Origin: Candidatus Woesearchaeota archaeon
GTDB lineage: Archaea > Nanobdellota > Nanobdellia > Woesearchaeales > WJIZ01
Length of the DNA stretch: 38,407 nucleotides
Reading direction: 5' to 3'
Assembly: GCA_018303575.1 (NCBI GenBank)
Contig: JAGVXW010000016.1
Coordinates: forward strand, 1 to 38,407
Shown here: piece after piece, positions 21,913 to 27,195 of the stretch
Numbering within the stretch: the first letter of the stretch is position 1
How the letters are laid out: every line of letters starts with the position of its first letter
The notes under the pieces: generated by a model
Seen by the model: only the letters and a program-made list of their open reading frames with translations
The model's database searches: none
What the model was told of the DNA's origin: nothing
Program-made: the position numbers and the translations under genes

Positions 21913-22166
21913 CCACGCCGCGCGGCCTTCAGAAGGCCCTCAGCTGTCCTGATAAGATTTCCTTCCAGATTGCTCGCTGGGGCAAATCGATATGGGGGGA
22001 TGAAACATTTTTGCAATCCATGAAGGAGTCTTAGAAGCTTTGGATAATTTCTATGCTGGAGGACATCGCCAAAGACTGCTCTCCAAGCGGCGGGCACTCT
22101 CAGCTGGCAGAAATGAAGAATAGAGCATTCATCGAAGGCGTACTGATTTTTAGGATCGAGGGCCAT
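21888..22166 (-). CDS. Hypothetical 92-aa ORF (possible remnant)
   Basis: ORF only, no recognisable motif. It starts 1 nt after the stop of the 40-aa ORF upstream. Confidence 0.2.
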   Translation of the reverse strand: MALDPKNQYAFDECSILHFCQLRVPAAWRAVFGDVLQHRNYPKLLRLLHGLQKCFIPPYRFAPASNLEGNLIRTAEGLLKAARRGCRTQSRN

Positions 22167-22167
22167 G

Positions 22168-22290
22168 TTATGCCGGAACCAGTTTTTTCAAGTCTGGATT
22201 TTCCAAAGAAAAGGGGTACTCCTTCACGGAGTTGACGATAAACTGATAGTATTTATTGATTACCCGGGAATCCTTGTCTTTCTTCCCCAT
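22168..22290 (-). CDS. Hypothetical 40-aa ORF (MGKKDKDSRVINKYYQFIVNSVKEYPFSLENPDLKKLVPA)
   Basis: Hand-translated and below the ORF-track cutoff. It starts 11 nt after the stop of the 215-aa gene. Confidence 0.15.
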   Translation of the reverse strand: MGKKDKDSRVINKYYQFIVNSVKEYPFSLENPDLKKLVPA

Positions 22291-22301
22291 TTCTTCTTTA
22301 A

Positions 22302-22949
22302 TCATGGGGATCGCCCTGGAGAGAATATGCAAAAAGCATCATGGTCATACGCTTCTTCCAGCCGTTTGAATCGCTTGTCGCGAAGATATTTTGTCAAATA
22401 ATAGCAATACTCTATCAGCGCCCTCAGCGTGATATTCACTATACTATCTTCCGGTATCTTATCAAGCTCTTGATAGAGGTCATAGAAATCGACGTGCAAC
22501 GTATTGACTTTCTGAAGCAAGGTATCCCTGTCCTCGACCTCTACAAGCAGTTTCCTATGTTCGGTATCGGAAATATCTGAAGCACTCAGTGTGCTCAGAT
22601 GCTGAATCTCCTTCTTGAACGCAAGCAATTCCCCTACTGATAATATTTTCTCCAATTTTGTCCTTATTGTTTTCTCCGCGAGCTCAGTTGCGGGCGGCTT
22701 CATCCGATATCCTATGCATGGAGTTCCGTTATACTCATAAGCGTATTTTTCGAAATAGTCATTTGACGAAAGCTTATCCACATCAGGGCTGAAAGAGCCA
22801 AATTTATTCAGCTTGAATTCAATATCTATTGGGATAAGATGGAGATTAAAGCTGGCCAAGAGCTTATTGAGCAAGGTTTTAGAAGAGATTCTATGATTCG
22901 GGGCAAAGCGCAAAATGAGGCTCATGGCCTCGTCTTTTGTCAACCTCAT
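22302..22949 (-). CDS. Hypothetical protein; the N-terminal ~65 aa resemble a winged-helix Panacea/DUF4065-like module, and the C-terminal part is helical/charged
   Basis: 215 aa. SKTLLNKLLASFNLHLIPIDIEFKLNKFGSFSPDVDKL loosely resembles the LKLQKLLY...F.AW.YGPV.P.VY pattern of DUF4065. Low-GC coding region. This is by-eye similarity only. Confidence 0.6.
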   Translation of the reverse strand: MRLTKDEAMSLILRFAPNHRISSKTLLNKLLASFNLHLIPIDIEFKLNKFGSFSPDVDKLSSNDYFEKYAYEYNGTPCIGYRMKPPATELAEKTIRTKLEKILSVGELLAFKKEIQHLSTLSASDISDTEHRKLLVEVEDRDTLLQKVNTLHVDFYDLYQELDKIPEDSIVNITLRALIEYCYYLTKYLRDKRFKRLEEAYDHDAFCIFSPGRSP

Positions 22950-22971
22950 AAAGGCATGAGCGAGAAAGCCC

Positions 22972-22979
22972 TTTAAATA
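22972..22979 (-). promoter_or_regulatory. TATA box (plus-strand TTTAAATA) for the 215-aa gene, leaderless spacing
   Basis: Centre ~26 nt upstream of the ATG at 22949. Confidence 0.45.
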
Positions 22980-22995
22980 TGTTTCTGAGAAAAAA

Positions 22996-23010
22996 CCGGA
23001 AAGTTTCCGG
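22996..23010. promoter_or_regulatory. Perfect 15-bp palindrome CCGGAAA-G-TTTCCGG in the divergent promoter region; candidate operator
   Basis: Read directly from the sequence. It lies between the two divergent TATA boxes of the island. Confidence 0.4.
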
Positions 23011-23108
23011 GAAATCCGACGGAGATTTTATTAAGGACCATCGCTTTGCGTGCTCACAATGTTTATATAGAAAAGAGCGTTATCCGCCCTTCAGGGGACA
23101 CCCAAAAA

Positions 23109-23117
23109 TTATATAAA
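23109..23117 (+). promoter_or_regulatory. TATA box (TTATATAAA) for the 3-gene cassette; a second TTTATATA lies at 23062-23069
   Basis: Centre ~33 nt upstream of the ATG at 23146. Confidence 0.45.
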
Positions 23118-23145
23118 GCCAGTATACGAAAAGGTAAACATCAGA

Positions 23146-23346
23146 ATGGACGCCAACGAATATGACAGGCTGAAAACAACGTTCCTGCAGCTCTTCCCCA
23201 ATGTGCCCACTCCCTTGAGAACCCAGATTATCGCGGTTGTTGAGAATCATACTTTCAGCTGGTTTACGGCCAAAGAGGAGATTAGCCGGAATGGCCCTTA
23301 CGCAAAGCCCATTTTAAAACAGCTGAAAGAGATGAGGGTGATTTGA
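23146..23346 (+). CDS. Small hypothetical protein (66 aa), distant paralogue of the next gene
   Basis: ORF with its own TATA box, ATGA overlap with the next gene. No recognised family. Confidence 0.55.
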   Translation: MDANEYDRLKTTFLQLFPNVPTPLRTQIIAVVENHTFSWFTAKEEISRNGPYAKPILKQLKEMRVI

Positions 23347-23564
23347 TGACAACCTATGGAGAAGATATCAAGAACCTCGTAAAAGAACGGCTTCGTGCAA
23401 TTCCGGCCAACGTGAGGTTTTCTGTAGGGAGCTATGGAGAGTTTACAAGAGAGCAGCTCATACAGGAAATTGACTTAAATACCCCTATCGGCAAGGACAT
23501 CATAGAGATGCAAGTCAACTTCATACGGGAAATGCCGAAAATCATCGCAAAGGCCTCGAACTAA
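23343..23564 (+). CDS. Small hypothetical protein (73 aa)
   Basis: ORF. 1-nt gap to the next gene. It shares the pattern hK..h...h..hP...R ... T.(K/R)E..I...N.P...K.I with the 66-aa protein. Confidence 0.55.
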   Translation: MMTTYGEDIKNLVKERLRAIPANVRFSVGSYGEFTREQLIQEIDLNTPIGKDIIEMQVNFIREMPKIIAKASN

Positions 23565-23565
23565 G

Positions 23566-24207
23566 ATGCTCCTCATTAGAACAGATCACGATTCTGCGAC
23601 CCATTACCTCTTCGAGGCCTGCCATGAGGTCATCGAAGAAGCCAAACGCAAAGGTTTCCAACCCCTTTGCATAGAATCGAAAGAGATAACCCTAACCACC
23701 ATTCAAAAGAGGGTCAAAAAATCACATCCCAGATTCTTTTTCTTTAACGGGCATGGATCGGACTCGAGCGTCTTCGATAATAAAGGCAAAGAACTGATCG
23801 CGAGAAAGGACGCTGACGTCTTTTCAGAAACGATAGCCTTCACACGTTCCTGCAGCTGTTTGCAAAAATTAGGGGAAGAAGCAGTTAACCAGGGCTGCCG
23901 AAGCTTTATCGGATACCGGAGAAGCTTTTACATCTCGCATCTTGATAGCTATGCGACCCGGCCATTGAAGGATCCGGCAGCGAAGCCAGTACTAGAAACA
24001 TCGAATCTTGTGGCGCTTTCGCTGATAAGAGGAAAAACAGTGGGAGAGTCTATTGAAGCATCAAAAAGAAAGTCCGCAGAATATATTCGAGACTTGAGTT
24101 ATAGCAACGATCCCTATCTATCGGCTACCCTCCCCGCACTGATCAACAATGTCGCGGCATTAGGGTTTTGCGGTGATGAAGGGGCTTCTTTGAACGTAAG
24201 CAAATAG
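23566..24207 (+). CDS. Hypothetical cytoplasmic protein with a caspase/gingipain-like (clan CD) His...Cys signature
   Basis: 213 aa. The alternating beta-alpha pattern MLLIRTD / helix / FQPLCIES / helix / PRFFFFNGHGS (His63-Gly) ... ETIAFTRSCSC (Cys96/Cys98) matches the strand-HG and strand-C topology of clan CD peptidases. GHGS recalls the C25 gingipain motif. No signal peptide. Confidence 0.6.
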   Translation: MLLIRTDHDSATHYLFEACHEVIEEAKRKGFQPLCIESKEITLTTIQKRVKKSHPRFFFFNGHGSDSSVFDNKGKELIARKDADVFSETIAFTRSCSCLQKLGEEAVNQGCRSFIGYRRSFYISHLDSYATRPLKDPAAKPVLETSNLVALSLIRGKTVGESIEASKRKSAEYIRDLSYSNDPYLSATLPALINNVAALGFCGDEGASLNVSK

Positions 24208-24220
24208 CAGCAATAAAGAG

Positions 24221-25237
24221 CTACCTCATCCCTTCCAGAACCTTCTTAATCAAGTCTTCTTGGATATCGATGTTCTGCTCAACCTTACCCAGCTTCCTTG
24301 GGAAGACGAACTGCCTGCTCGGGAGGTGCTCGAGCACTTGGTCGACTCCATAGGAATGCTTCTGGGGCGCGCCGAGCTTTTCAAGCAGAGCGTAGACTTT
24401 CCTTGCCTGCGGCGGGTTGAGGATGCCGGCGGCTTCCGCCAATCTTGTTTCGGTCAAGACCCCTAGAGCGAGCCAGTCGCGGTCGCCTAATCTTGAGAAC
24501 GCGTGGCCAAGACGCGTGCCAAAGCGCAGCTGCTTGATGTCAGTCTCCAAGAGCTTGAGCTTCAACTCCAGCGCCTTCTTCAGGCATTTGGCGAGCAGCT
24601 CCTTGTCTGAGGCGAGCTTGGAATGATAATCCTCGAGCAGGATGAAGAAGCGGTCATCGGCGACAATCGCGACGCGCAGCATCTCGATAATGCCCGGAAT
24701 ATAAGCATCCGGAGGCAAGGAATCCAGAAACGCCAAGTCGATCAGGACGCGCTTCGGGCGGTAATAGGAGCCAATCACCTTCCTGCTCTTCTCGGTGTCT
24801 ACCCCCACCCGGCCGCCAATCGGGTGGTCGACCATGCAGTAGAGCGTCGTGGGAAGCAACAGATAGGGAATCCCGCCGTAATAGGTCGAGGATACAAAAC
24901 CTGCCAAATCGGCGATGGTTCCGCCTCCTAAAGCCAGGATCACGGACTCCTTGCCTAGCCCATGCGCAAGCATGATGTCCTCGATCTGCGCCTTCATGTC
25001 GCGGTCATTCTTCCCTGGAGGGATGGAAACCATCACGGCGTTTATCCCGCGGGACTTCATGACACCATGGAACTTCTCTCCGTAGAGCCGCTTAACCGTG
25101 GCATCCGTTATCACACATACCCTGCCGAGATTGAGCTTCAGGAGCCCGTCAGCGACATTGTCAAGGATGTTCGTCCCGATGACAATGTCGAACGAATCAT
25201 CGACTTCCCGCGTAAGATGCACCCGGATCTTTTCCAC
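24221..25237 (-). CDS. aroB: 3-dehydroquinate synthase-like protein (AroB family) with an apparently degenerate metal site
   Basis: 338 aa, GTG start. GGGTIADLAGFVSSTYYGGIPYLLLPTTLYCMVDHPIGGRVGVD...VIGSYYRPKRVLIDLAFLDSLP matches the DHQS core. LRFGTRLGHAFS replaces LNxGHTxGHAxE. Confidence 0.75.
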   Translation of the reverse strand: MEKIRVHLTREVDDSFDIVIGTNILDNVADGLLKLNLGRVCVITDATVKRLYGEKFHGVMKSRGINAVMVSIPPGKNDRDMKAQIEDIMLAHGLGKESVILALGGGTIADLAGFVSSTYYGGIPYLLLPTTLYCMVDHPIGGRVGVDTEKSRKVIGSYYRPKRVLIDLAFLDSLPPDAYIPGIIEMLRVAIVADDRFFILLEDYHSKLASDKELLAKCLKKALELKLKLLETDIKQLRFGTRLGHAFSRLGDRDWLALGVLTETRLAEAAGILNPPQARKVYALLEKLGAPQKHSYGVDQVLEHLPSRQFVFPRKLGKVEQNIDIQEDLIKKVLEGMR

Positions 25238-25259
25238 GGCTGGGCAAGGGCAAAGGAAA

Positions 25260-25267
25260 CTTATAAG
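25260..25267 (-). promoter_or_regulatory. TATA-like box (CTTATAAG) for the aroB-like gene
   Basis: Centre ~26 nt upstream of the GTG at 25237, and 14 nt after the transketolase stop. Confidence 0.35.
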
Positions 25268-25280
25268 GCTTTTGCCAGAA

Positions 25281-26225
25281 TTAGAGATCTTTTTTAATCC
25301 GCTGGATCAAATGTTTTACTGATAGGCCATACTTGTCATAGAGCTCTTCCGGCTGGCCGGACTCGCCGAACGTGTCCTGGACGCCATGGCGCACAAGCTT
25401 GGCACCGGGATTCTCGGCCAAGAGCTCGGCCACAGCTCCGCCCAGGCCGCCGATAATCGAGTGATCCTCGGCTGTGATGACGCGCTTGGTCTTCTTCGCT
25501 GACTTGAGGATGAGTGCTGAATCCAACGGCTTGATTGTTGACATATTGATGACTTCGAGCGAGATGTTTTCCTTGGCCAAGAAGCCAGCGGCTTCTAAAG
25601 CGATCGAGACGAGAGGGCCGCAGGCGACTATGGTTGCATCTTTTCCTTCTCTCATTATTTTTCCCTTGCCAATCTCAAAAATATATTTGTCATCAAACAA
25701 AATAGGCGTCTTATCGCGGGTGAGGCGCATATATGCCGGCCCCTTATGTTTCGCCAGGGCAAGCGTGGCCTTCTCCGCTTCCACGGAATCAGCAGGGCAG
25801 AGGACTACCATGCCGGGAAGGGTGCGATAGATGGCCATATCCTCTATGGCCTGGGCCGAGGAGCCGTCTGTGCCGGTCATCAATCCCGCATGAGAGCCGA
25901 TGATCTTGACATTCATCTTCATGCGGCAGACACAGTTCCTAATCTGCTCGAAGGCGCGCTCGGTGAAGATGGCGAACGTTGAGGCGAACGCGACCTTGCC
26001 GCTAGAGGCGAGGCCGGCTGCCATCACCATCATGTTCTGCTCCGTGATGCCGCAGGAGACCCAGCGCTCCGGGAATGCTTCCTTCACAGTCCGTGATTTC
26101 GTTGACTTGCCGAGATCAGCTTCGAGAGCGACGACATTCGGGTCTTTTTCCGCGGCCTTCAGAAGGCCCCTTCCATACCCTTCGCGGGACGCTTCCATAG
26201 GGGCCTCCGAACGAAGTTCACTCAT
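25281..26225 (-). CDS. Transketolase, C-terminal (pyrimidine-binding) subunit
   Basis: MSELRSEAPMEASREGYGRGLLKAAEKDPNVVALEADLGKSTKS.... I chose the ATG at 26225 (GGAGG 9 nt upstream) over the GTG at 26261 given by the ORF track. Confidence 0.88.
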   Translation of the reverse strand: MSELRSEAPMEASREGYGRGLLKAAEKDPNVVALEADLGKSTKSRTVKEAFPERWVSCGITEQNMMVMAAGLASSGKVAFASTFAIFTERAFEQIRNCVCRMKMNVKIIGSHAGLMTGTDGSSAQAIEDMAIYRTLPGMVVLCPADSVEAEKATLALAKHKGPAYMRLTRDKTPILFDDKYIFEIGKGKIMREGKDATIVACGPLVSIALEAAGFLAKENISLEVINMSTIKPLDSALILKSAKKTKRVITAEDHSIIGGLGGAVAELLAENPGAKLVRHGVQDTFGESGQPEELYDKYGLSVKHLIQRIKKDL

Positions 26226-26392
26226 CTCCACTGCCTCCGGGCGCCGGCACTCAGCTTCCACGTCTTTCCTTCTGCGCCCTGAGGAATCTCCGTGAAGCTC
26301 GCCCTCGACGCGTCGTGGACATATTTTGGAACTCCCGGGGCAGCCGCCTTCACGATGGGGTGCGCCTTTGTCTCTGCCGGTTTCTTGTGCAT
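26222..26392 (-). CDS. Possible 56-aa ORF filling the spacer between the two transketolase subunit genes
   Basis: Hand-translated: MHKKPAETKAHPIVKAAAPGVPKYVHDASRASFTEIPQGAEGKTWKLSAGARRQWR. Its TGA overlaps the ATG at 26225 in an ATGA junction. No recognised family. Confidence 0.2.
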   Translation of the reverse strand: MHKKPAETKAHPIVKAAAPGVPKYVHDASRASFTEIPQGAEGKTWKLSAGARRQWR

Positions 26393-26397
26393 TTTTT

Positions 26398-27195
26398 TCA
26401 TCTCAGCTCCTCTAACGCTTTCTTCAATTCCTCGTCATTCGGGGCAGCGCCATGCCACTTCGGGTTGTTCTCCATGAACGAGACTCCTTTGCCCTTGACC
26501 GTTTTCGCAATGATGCACCACGGGCCTTTCTCCTTCTTCGCCTTCTCAAAAGCGGGGACGATCTCGTTGAAGTCGTGGCCATCTATTTCCATGATTTTAA
26601 AACCGAAAGATCTCCATCGCTCAGTCAAGGGCTCGATATTGCTCGTGACCGCGACATAATCATCGTTCTGGATGCCGTTCTTGTCAACGATGACGACGAT
26701 ATTGTCGAGCTTATGGAAGGTCGTGTTCTCGGCCGCTTCCCAGACCATGCCTTCCTGGCACTCGCCGTCGCCGACCATCACCCAGACTTTGTACGATTTC
26801 TTGTCCAGCTTTCCGGCGTAGGCGACGCCATTGCCGAAGGAGAGGCCCATTCCTAGGGAGCCGGCGGACATCTCCACACCCGGCACTTTAGTATCGGTAT
26901 GGCCCTGCAACAACCGATTGATCTTCCTGAAGCCGTCCAACTCCTTGCTTGGGAAATATCCTTTACGAGCGAGGACAGCATACATTCCAGGAGACGCGTG
27001 GCCTTTTGAAAGGATGAAGCGATCCCTGTCCGGATCCGAAGGCTTCTTGGGATTCACGTTGAGGATGCCGCCGAAGTAGAGCACCGAGAGCATGTCGATC
27101 TCTGACAAAGAACCGCCGGGGTGGCCTGCTCCTGCCTTGTTGAGCATGACGAGAATGTCCTTCCTCAATTCTTTTGCGAGAGAGGCGAAGTCCAT
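26398..27195 (-). CDS. Transketolase, N-terminal (thiamine-diphosphate-binding) subunit
   Basis: 265 aa, ...GHPGGSLSEIDMLSVLYF...ILSKGHASPGMYAVL...VMVGDGECQEGMVWEAA.... Confidence 0.92.
   Translation of the reverse strand: MDFASLAKELRKDILVMLNKAGAGHPGGSLSEIDMLSVLYFGGILNVNPKKPSDPDRDRFILSKGHASPGMYAVLARKGYFPSKELDGFRKINRLLQGHTDTKVPGVEMSAGSLGMGLSFGNGVAYAGKLDKKSYKVWVMVGDGECQEGMVWEAAENTTFHKLDNIVVIVDKNGIQNDDYVAVTSNIEPLTERWRSFGFKIMEIDGHDFNEIVPAFEKAKKEKGPWCIIAKTVKGKGVSFMENNPKWHGAAPNDEELKKALEELR

Follow-up and report, generated by a model that had tools for sequence, protein, structure and literature searches.

We analysed a stretch of 38,407 nucleotides from a Candidatus Woesearchaeota archaeon (GenBank assembly GCA_018303575.1, contig JAGVXW010000016.1, positions 1 to 38,407), here called the window, and describe a cassette of three genes, A, B and C, that covers about 1.06 kb of its forward strand. 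Gene A (23146..23346, NCBI J4419_01695) is the first gene of the cassette and encodes a small soluble protein of 66 amino acids. Gene B (23346..23564, J4419_01700, MBS3106363.1) encodes 72 amino acids from the ATG start used by NCBI, and gene C (23566..24207, J4419_01705, MBS3106364.1) encodes a stand-alone cysteine peptidase candidate of 213 amino acids. All three products are identical to proteins of a Candidatus Woesearchaeota metagenome-assembled genome (MAG) and are named "hypothetical protein" at NCBI. An earlier note on this DNA had given 66 and 73 amino acids for the small proteins; the first length is right, and the second is obtained only from an alternative B start, TTG at 23343.

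The genes are packed tightly. The A stop codon TGA (23344-23346) has one base in common with the B start codon ATG (23346-23348), giving TGATG, or the two genes overlap by 4 nucleotides (TTGA) if B starts at the TTG. The B stop codon TAA (23562-23564) is followed by a single base and then by the ATG of C (23566). The tight coupling and the 1-nucleotide gap of the earlier note are thus as described, whereas its ATGA overlap is slightly off in detail: ATGA can be read at 23346-23349, but gene A does not end on the TGA within it.

Protein C has the motifs PRFFFFNGHGS, with His63 (codon 23752..23754), and ETIAFTRSCSC, with Cys96 (23851..23853) and, as its second cysteine, Cys98 (23857..23859), both at the residues named earlier and 33 and 35 residues from the histidine. 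A word-indexed search with C found only six close relatives, and a full profile search defined a family of 1956 representative clusters at 50% identity (E <=1e-3), of which 856 pass 1e-10 and 249 pass 1e-30. Among the 150 best members almost all are full-length, with 200-221 amino acids, and the few that are shorter have the look of fragments; the C family is therefore stand-alone and single-domain, with a typical length of about 210-218 amino acids. His63, Cys96 and Asp136 (codon 23971..23973) are the sole invariant columns in 129 aligned relatives, with Asn61, Gly62, Gly64, Gly116 and Tyr117 near-invariant. In an independent alignment of 145 sequences, His63 and Cys96 are present in 145/145 and Asp136 in 144/145, the remaining row being gapped. 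The expected conservation of the two active-site residues was therefore borne out for His63, predicted to be the catalytic histidine of an N-G-H-G motif, and for Cys96, predicted to be the catalytic cysteine of an (A/T)-R-S-C motif, but not for Cys98, since position 98 is a cysteine in just 24 of the 145; this leaves Cys96 as the candidate nucleophile.

The third invariant residue, Asp136, sits in a lower-confidence loop of the structural model after strand 113-117 (predicted local distance difference test, pLDDT, of 70-74 over the residue blocks 121-140). Position 9 is Asp or Glu in 143/145 relatives and Arg5 is also conserved. Presumably position 9, Asp136 and Arg5 lie in the loops that make the S1 pocket in other clan-CD enzymes, and by this analogy Asp136 is a candidate substrate-pocket residue.

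The AlphaFold2 model of C (pLDDT 90.6, predicted template modelling score 0.89) has core strands at 2-5, 34-37, 57-61, 90-94, 113-117 and 199-203, with alternating helices, and this order of strands and helices is the one that had been read from the sequence in advance. His63-Gly64 follows directly after the third core strand (57-61) and Cys96 directly after the fourth (90-94), the arrangement of strand-3 histidine and strand-4 cysteine that defines the caspase-haemoglobinase fold, an alpha/beta/alpha sandwich with a six-stranded sheet. Foldseek against the PDB returned only clan-CD peptidases among all matches with E <=0.001. The best were the SAVED-CHAT filament 8tl0 (E 1.5e-6) and gingipain R, 1cvr/4ief (E 3.8e-5, template modelling score 0.65 on the query), followed by the Craspase TPR-CHAT, a C11 protease zymogen and separase. 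According to the model, C has the clan-CD caspase-haemoglobinase fold, with six core strands and with the His-Gly pair and the cysteine both in their places, and it is predicted to be about the smallest size at which the caspase fold occurs. A helix (99-108) and then strand 113-117 come directly after Cys96 in the model, and as there is no long linker at this point, the intersubunit cleavage of the caspase type should not be needed.

By sequence, C stands apart from the curated families. The protein of the window has no match in Pfam, NCBIfam, PADLOC (E up to 1) or PHROGs; in particular, it does not match Peptidase_C25 (PF01364) even at E up to 1, nor CHAT (PF12770), and is not a member of either family by these sequence models. 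Single-sequence and profile HMMER searches with C against the PDB sequences gave noise only and did not retrieve the gingipains. Sub-threshold Peptidase_C25 matches were found for 5/129 relatives of C (best E 7.2e-7) and weak CHAT matches for 2/129 (E ~0.01). The likeness of GHGS to the gingipain motif, proposed earlier, holds at the level of the motif. The gingipain RgpB, for which a sequence identical to 4ief_B was used, has its GHGS histidine at 211 and the cysteine of its ACV motif at 244, which form its catalytic dyad, and they are 33 residues apart, the same spacing as between His63 and Cys96. The hhalign comparison of the C profile with RgpB placed GHGS onto GHGS, weakly and without significance. 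A phmmer search with RgpB against the C family was also not significant, with both dyad residues in register in some of the pairwise alignments. Because neither comparison reached significance, the link of C to C25 and CHAT is drawn from structure and from the few sub-threshold Pfam matches. We conclude that C is a new family in clan CD, nearest to C25 and CHAT and a member of neither by their models; its relation to C25 is at the level of clan or superfamily, not of family membership.

The nearest structures are the CHAT proteases of type III CRISPR-linked systems and the gingipains. Gingipain R (RgpB; MEROPS C25, PF01364) shares with C the clan-CD fold, the G-H-G-S motif and the 33-residue spacing. 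Unlike the gingipains, C has no N-terminal subdomain, immunoglobulin-like domain, propeptide or secretion C-terminal domain, being a cytoplasmic protein of 213 amino acids with two small partner genes in DPANN archaea and the bacterial Candidate Phyla Radiation (CPR), whereas gingipains belong to Bacteroidota pathogens. SAVED-CHAT (8tl0) and the Craspase TPR-CHAT/Csx29 (7xsr, 7y84) are the best structural matches (E 1.5e-6 to 6e-3). CHAT proteases are likewise cytoplasmic clan-CD enzymes, which are inactive until a signal arrives and act in conflict systems; C differs from them in having neither a fused sensor domain (SAVED, TPR) nor nearby genes for CRISPR or for cyclic-oligonucleotide-based antiphage signalling (CBASS). 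Since no sensor is fused to C, A and B, as separate proteins, would have to supply any regulation. The orthocaspases and metacaspases (C14) also resemble C in clan, in the His/Cys dyad and in having prokaryotic cytoplasmic members, but C has no Pfam C14 match and no p20/p10 linker, and the C14 enzymes are larger and usually fused. A survey of polymorphic toxins (PMC3482391) described bacterial caspase-like domains both as toxins and as processing peptidases, within large secreted multidomain proteins.

Clan CD includes transamidases and ligase-like legumains, and C could be non-hydrolytic, performing transpeptidation or ligation as in the GPI (glycosylphosphatidylinositol) transamidase and the legumain-type ligases, or serving as a scaffold, with A and B as acceptor or donor proteins. 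The presence of such members in the clan is in line with this, as is the lack of detectable sequence membership of C in any curated peptidase family. The invariant His-Gly and Cys in canonical positions argue for catalysis, however, the nearest structures are all hydrolytic peptidases, and neither A nor B ends in a conserved motif (GG or a sorting signal, for example) of the kind that would point to ligation. We consider a non-hydrolytic C highly unlikely.

The small proteins are conserved along their whole lengths, as is C. In the A family, F13, P21, R25, W39 and E45 are invariant (alignment A4, n=39), and in the B family R15, G28 and G49 (alignment A3, n=43). Neither A nor B has a match in Pfam, NCBIfam, PADLOC (E up to 1) or PHROGs, the 39 A and 43 B sequences scanned singly against Pfam gave no recurrent match, and profile searches of the PDB sequences with A and B gave nothing credible. 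The two families align with each other by hhalign in a colinear manner over ~50 columns (E 7.6e-5, probability 62%), with a score of 25.6 against <=12.4 in 20 column-shuffled controls. The suggestion of the earlier note that they are diverged duplicates is moderately supported by these profile alignments, and we regard A and B as probable distant paralogues. A reading of A and B as precursors of ribosomally synthesised and post-translationally modified peptides was ruled out by the whole-length conservation and the lack of a variable core.

The AlphaFold2 model of B (pLDDT 86.7), built from three sequences only, has a helix at 3-18, a hairpin at 24-27/31-34, a second helix at 35-43 and a long helix at 47-71. 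Foldseek with this model found no significant match in the PDB or BFVD, the best being prefoldin beta at E 0.5. A separate match of B to the designed double-psi barrel 7dww (E 0.004) was not trusted, as it covers a repeated motif of 20 residues; it was produced by the segment (E/D)-x-G-K-x-I-I-E-x-Q-L-x-F-L at residues 45-65 and is probably due to chance, although it could hint at a beta-alpha unit like that of cradle-loop barrels.

The sequence pattern had initially allowed a helix-turn-helix (HTH) or sigma-region-4 reading of A and B, which was dropped as the primary one after the B model and the isoelectric points were obtained. We considered in this context a switch of the ImmR/ImmA type, in which A and/or B would be DNA-binding repressors that C inactivates by cleavage upon a signal, thereby controlling a mobile element or the neighbouring genes. 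The architecture, with small proteins upstream of a protease, matches such a switch, the pattern L-P-x3-R ... E-I ... G-K-x-I-L bears a loose likeness to sigma-70 region 4 or HTH, B has a weak NCBIfam sigma-factor match (E 0.064), and an integrase and mobile genes adjoin the cassette in some loci. Searched for as HTH or ribbon-helix-helix (RHH) regulators, however, A and B gave no family match, and the helix, beta-hairpin, helix, helix order of the B model corresponds to no HTH, RHH or other DNA-binding fold. The median isoelectric points are 6.1 for A, 5.4 for B and 8.6 for C; A and B are thus mostly acidic, and together with their solubility and the unmatched fold of B this argues against classical DNA-binding regulators. 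No recurrent operator-like palindrome was found upstream of A in seven loci, and there is no conserved set of neighbour genes to regulate. A switch of this type appears quite improbable to us, and the features of A and B suit proteins that partner C, as its inhibitor or its substrate. Transmembrane segments and signal-like hydrophobic stretches are absent from all three families, in agreement with the view that C carries no signal peptide.

The three genes occur together far beyond the window. The six close relatives of C are preceded by genes for 65-69 and 71-75 amino acids, except at contig ends, and a further 43 loci came from a pattern scan in which each GTDB species was represented by one genome. 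In a survey with hidden Markov models of A and B over the loci L001-L055, each of the about 50 loci with enough upstream DNA had a single A gene and a single B gene, arranged A-B-C on one strand. A and/or B are missing only in L012 (A), L019, L024 (A), L033 and L048 (A), where the contigs end. The junctions are mostly overlaps of 4 nucleotides or 1 nucleotide, or gaps of <=10 nucleotides. Clustering of the flanking open reading frames (ORFs) within ~4 kb detected no other recurrent family and no conserved synteny. The recurrence of the A-B-C order across two domains of life means that the arrangement in the window is not due to chance. The earlier note had named in advance what would refute a caspase-like protease cassette, namely a different fold of C, active-site residues that are not conserved or three genes that do not co-occur; all of these were examined and none refuted it.

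By the labels of their contigs, the archaeal carriers are Woesearchaeota, Nanoarchaeia/Nanoarchaeota, Altiarchaeota, Aenigmatarchaeota and Micrarchaeota. The bacterial carriers, named in the same way, are many lineages of Patescibacteria/CPR, for instance Microgenomates, Daviesbacteria, Roizmanbacteria, Saccharibacteria and Gottesmanbacteria, and also Nomurabacteria, Andersenbacteria, Magasanikbacteria and Shapirobacteria. In one metagenomic locus the archaeal tRNA enzyme TiaS adjoins the cassette. The scan detected the cassette in 43 of 185,579 GTDB species with a pattern that fits only ~10% of the family representatives, so this number is a lower bound and a rough estimate would be some hundreds of species. 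By this rough estimate the distribution looks patchy and not universal.

In the neighbour-joining tree of C, archaeal and bacterial sequences form separate clades, except that one Nanoarchaeota sequence (L050) is nested in CPR, through either a transfer of the cassette between domains or misbinning of the contig. The neighbours in this Nanoarchaeota MAG are a Fic gene (SoFic/PDC-S04) and a DpdF-like helicase. Eight loci (L014, L021, L022, L025, L035, L039, L043 and L044; guanine-plus-cytosine (GC) content 0.33-0.42) are labelled Methanosarcinales, Gammaproteobacteria or Pseudomonadales. The cassette proteins of some of them (L014 compared with L016, L025 compared with L024 and L026) are near-identical to proteins from contigs of Woesearchaeota or of Microgenomates/Daviesbacteria. 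Because of this near-identity to CPR and Woesearchaeota proteins, the odd labels are suspected to come from mislabelled co-assembly bins.

We propose, with about an even chance of being right, that A-B-C is a horizontally spread module of toxin-antitoxin (TA) or defence type, in which A and B control a minimal clan-CD protease or are cut by it. The features of a TA-like architecture are present: small proteins together with an enzyme, overlapping genes, variable context and a roughly patchy distribution. By analogy, the nearest architecture would be that of a three-gene TA operon such as omega-epsilon-zeta. Such operons resemble A-B-C in that two small genes precede a larger one for an enzyme, with junctions that are tight or overlap, in the acidic small proteins and basic enzyme, in the decay of the enzyme gene where the small genes are kept and in the variable, mobile-rich contexts. 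They differ in that no relation in sequence or fold exists and that A and B are paralogues of each other without a recognisable DNA-binding fold. To our knowledge, no TA toxin is a clan-CD protease. A search of full-text literature found no description of such a three-gene cassette, which together with the lack of matches to the A, B and C families agrees with the statement of the earlier note that it knew of no described system of this composition.

Composition and gene decay bear on this proposal. The cassette lies in a low-GC island (22000..24220), with GC of 0.40-0.47 against 0.52-0.58 in the flanks, as had been noticed from the sequence. Across the loci, cassette GC is more than 3 points below that of the flanks in 19/40 and more than 3 points above in 3/40, with 0.364 against 0.509 in L013. 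The island and the lower cassette GC point to horizontal acquisition. Gene C is disrupted in four loci (L001, L029, L054 and L055) in which A and B are intact. In L001 (5001-5635, corresponding to window 23566-24207), on a metagenomic sibling contig 98-99.8% identical to the window overall, the cassette is identical save for a 7-bp deletion, GCATCTT (window 23937-23943), which splits C into fragments of 131 and 80 amino acids and is either a strain-level loss of function or an assembly artefact. C is frameshifted in L029 (6001-6632, Altiarchaeota) and L054 (6013-6512, Aenigmatarchaeota), and in L055 (6010-6234) it is truncated directly behind NGHG, where an unrelated cupredoxin-like ORF follows. 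The decay of C alone in four loci is suggestive of a toxin role.

The neighbouring genes vary, and a notable part of them are mobile or defence genes, such as a tyrosine integrase (L049), PRiA4_ORF3 (L023), Fic (L039) and AAA_14/DUF4143 (L014). Among ten immediate downstream neighbours taken irrespective of content, four match PADLOC families strongly (AbiEi 6e-45, mad2 1e-21, PDC-S05 4e-127 and PDC-M05A 7e-16), as a raw count. In a selected set of neighbours, further PADLOC matches were SoFic/PDC-S04 in two loci, PDC-S01, PDC-S11, PDC-S13 and DpdF-like helicases. The association of the cassette with defence and mobile genes is suggestive. Fic/DOC genes lie beside the cassette in L039 (4127-5182) and L050 (6811-7812), with SoFic E values of 1e-40 and 6e-30; these loci are unrelated and the gene is once upstream and once downstream, so that the adjacency may be a coincidence in defence islands or a recurring association.

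Several observations weigh against a mobile defence or TA module. The lower GC may come partly from the richness of the proteins in Lys and Glu. The count of disruptions, four in C and none in the shorter A and B together, does not settle the matter statistically, and errors in the assembly of MAGs could have added to it. Several of the PDC families represent generic domains of mobile elements, and ordinary housekeeping functions (aminoacyl-tRNA synthetase, Lon, Cdc6, nucleotidyl transferase) account for many of the neighbours. Searches of IMG/VR (by pattern scan), INPHARED phages and PLSDB plasmids yielded no C homologue. As none of the three proteins matches a model in PADLOC, Pfam, NCBIfam or PHROGs, the argument for a defence role is drawn entirely from the neighbourhood. 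The physical contact of A, B and C, and the role of the small proteins as inhibitor or substrate, are inferred.

Some of these points would be expected if C were a housekeeping enzyme, a maturation or turnover protease for A and/or B or one that uses them as adaptors, in a normal cell process specific to ultra-small episymbionts. The C family is large and old, with deep and mostly domain-separated DPANN and CPR clades, and the conservation of all three proteins over their entire lengths, the many housekeeping neighbours and the lack of phage and plasmid copies are in line with such a function. A housekeeping function agrees poorly, on the other hand, with the distribution, which looks patchy even if the 43 species are perhaps a few hundred in reality, and with the lack of conserved synteny. 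Nor does it explain well the four loci with disrupted C, one of them by a strain-level deletion, or the position of the cassette in compositional islands, often beside defence or mobile families. We regard it as unlikely. We infer for the cassette a TA or abortive-infection role, which gains support from the defence- and mobile-rich neighbourhoods and from the decay of C alone.

In the mechanism that we suggest, A-B-C would be a self-contained, co-transcribed and translationally coupled operon, and C an active, cytoplasmic, single-domain cysteine peptidase with the dyad His63/Cys96. A and B would act as a pair, probably a heterodimer joined through the beta-hairpins, and this pair may bind the mostly basic C either as an inhibitor ("antidote") or as a dedicated substrate or sensor. 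A trigger, infection or the loss of A and B, would free C, which could then cleave proteins of the cell or of the invader. The module as a whole would be an accessory conflict element that moves horizontally among DPANN and CPR. A more specific form of the proposal, to which we give somewhat less than an even chance, is a so far undescribed three-component conflict system of abortive-infection or TA type, specific to the ultra-small DPANN and CPR episymbionts, with an effector that is one of the smallest stand-alone proteases of the caspase fold, under the control of an A/B heterodimer whose fold is not in the PDB.

Proteases with the caspase fold are recognised executioners in prokaryotic immunity, as in Craspase, SAVED-CHAT and the proteases that activate gasdermins. 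The described immune cases that we know of are all large multidomain proteins tied to CRISPR, CBASS or gasdermins. If the proposal is true, the cassette would be a minimal instance of the caspase fold, whose regulation is left to two small proteins encoded separately. What is new here is three unannotated protein families and the composition of the module, of which the C family by itself has ~850-1950 clusters at 50% identity, all "hypothetical"; the known kind to which the module belongs is that of conflict or regulatory modules based on clan-CD proteases. The CPR and DPANN hosts are mostly uncultivated and their defence and conflict repertoire is poorly known. A cassette common to archaeal and bacterial episymbionts is a concrete case of cross-domain gene flow, and it is compact and directly testable by heterologous expression.

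Upstream of gene A, TTATATAAA (23109..23117, forward strand), ~30-37 nucleotides 5' of the A start codon, resembles an archaeal TATA box as read from the sequence and is a candidate promoter of the operon, and GAGGGTGA, 5' of B, is a putative Shine-Dalgarno-like element. A scan for sigma-70 promoters and terminators gave background level only, with models of bacterial promoters that are unsuited to an archaeon. ARAGORN found zero tRNA genes in the 38-kb window, so no tRNA integration site is available there.

The low-GC island contains, besides the cassette, one divergent unknown gene, and lies between housekeeping genes, which encode a P-type cation ATPase on the upstream side and, on the downstream side, 3-dehydroquinate synthase and a split transketolase. 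The divergent gene is an ORF of 215 amino acids (22302-22949, reverse strand), for which no credible match was found in Pfam, NCBIfam, PADLOC or PHROGs, the best being DndD (E 0.016) and phrog_32364 (E 0.04). It is not recurrent beside the cassette in other loci, and it may have come with the island or be an unrelated accessory gene. Its counterpart on the sibling contig L001 is called as 264 amino acids, with indels and a run of N.

The transketolase region (24221-27195, reverse strand) has separate genes for the N-terminal (26398-27195) and C-terminal (25281-26261) parts near 3-dehydroquinate synthase. This cluster of aromatic amino-acid and pentose-phosphate genes is somewhat unexpected for a reduced DPANN genome, and the GC of the window, ~0.56, is high for Woesearchaeota.

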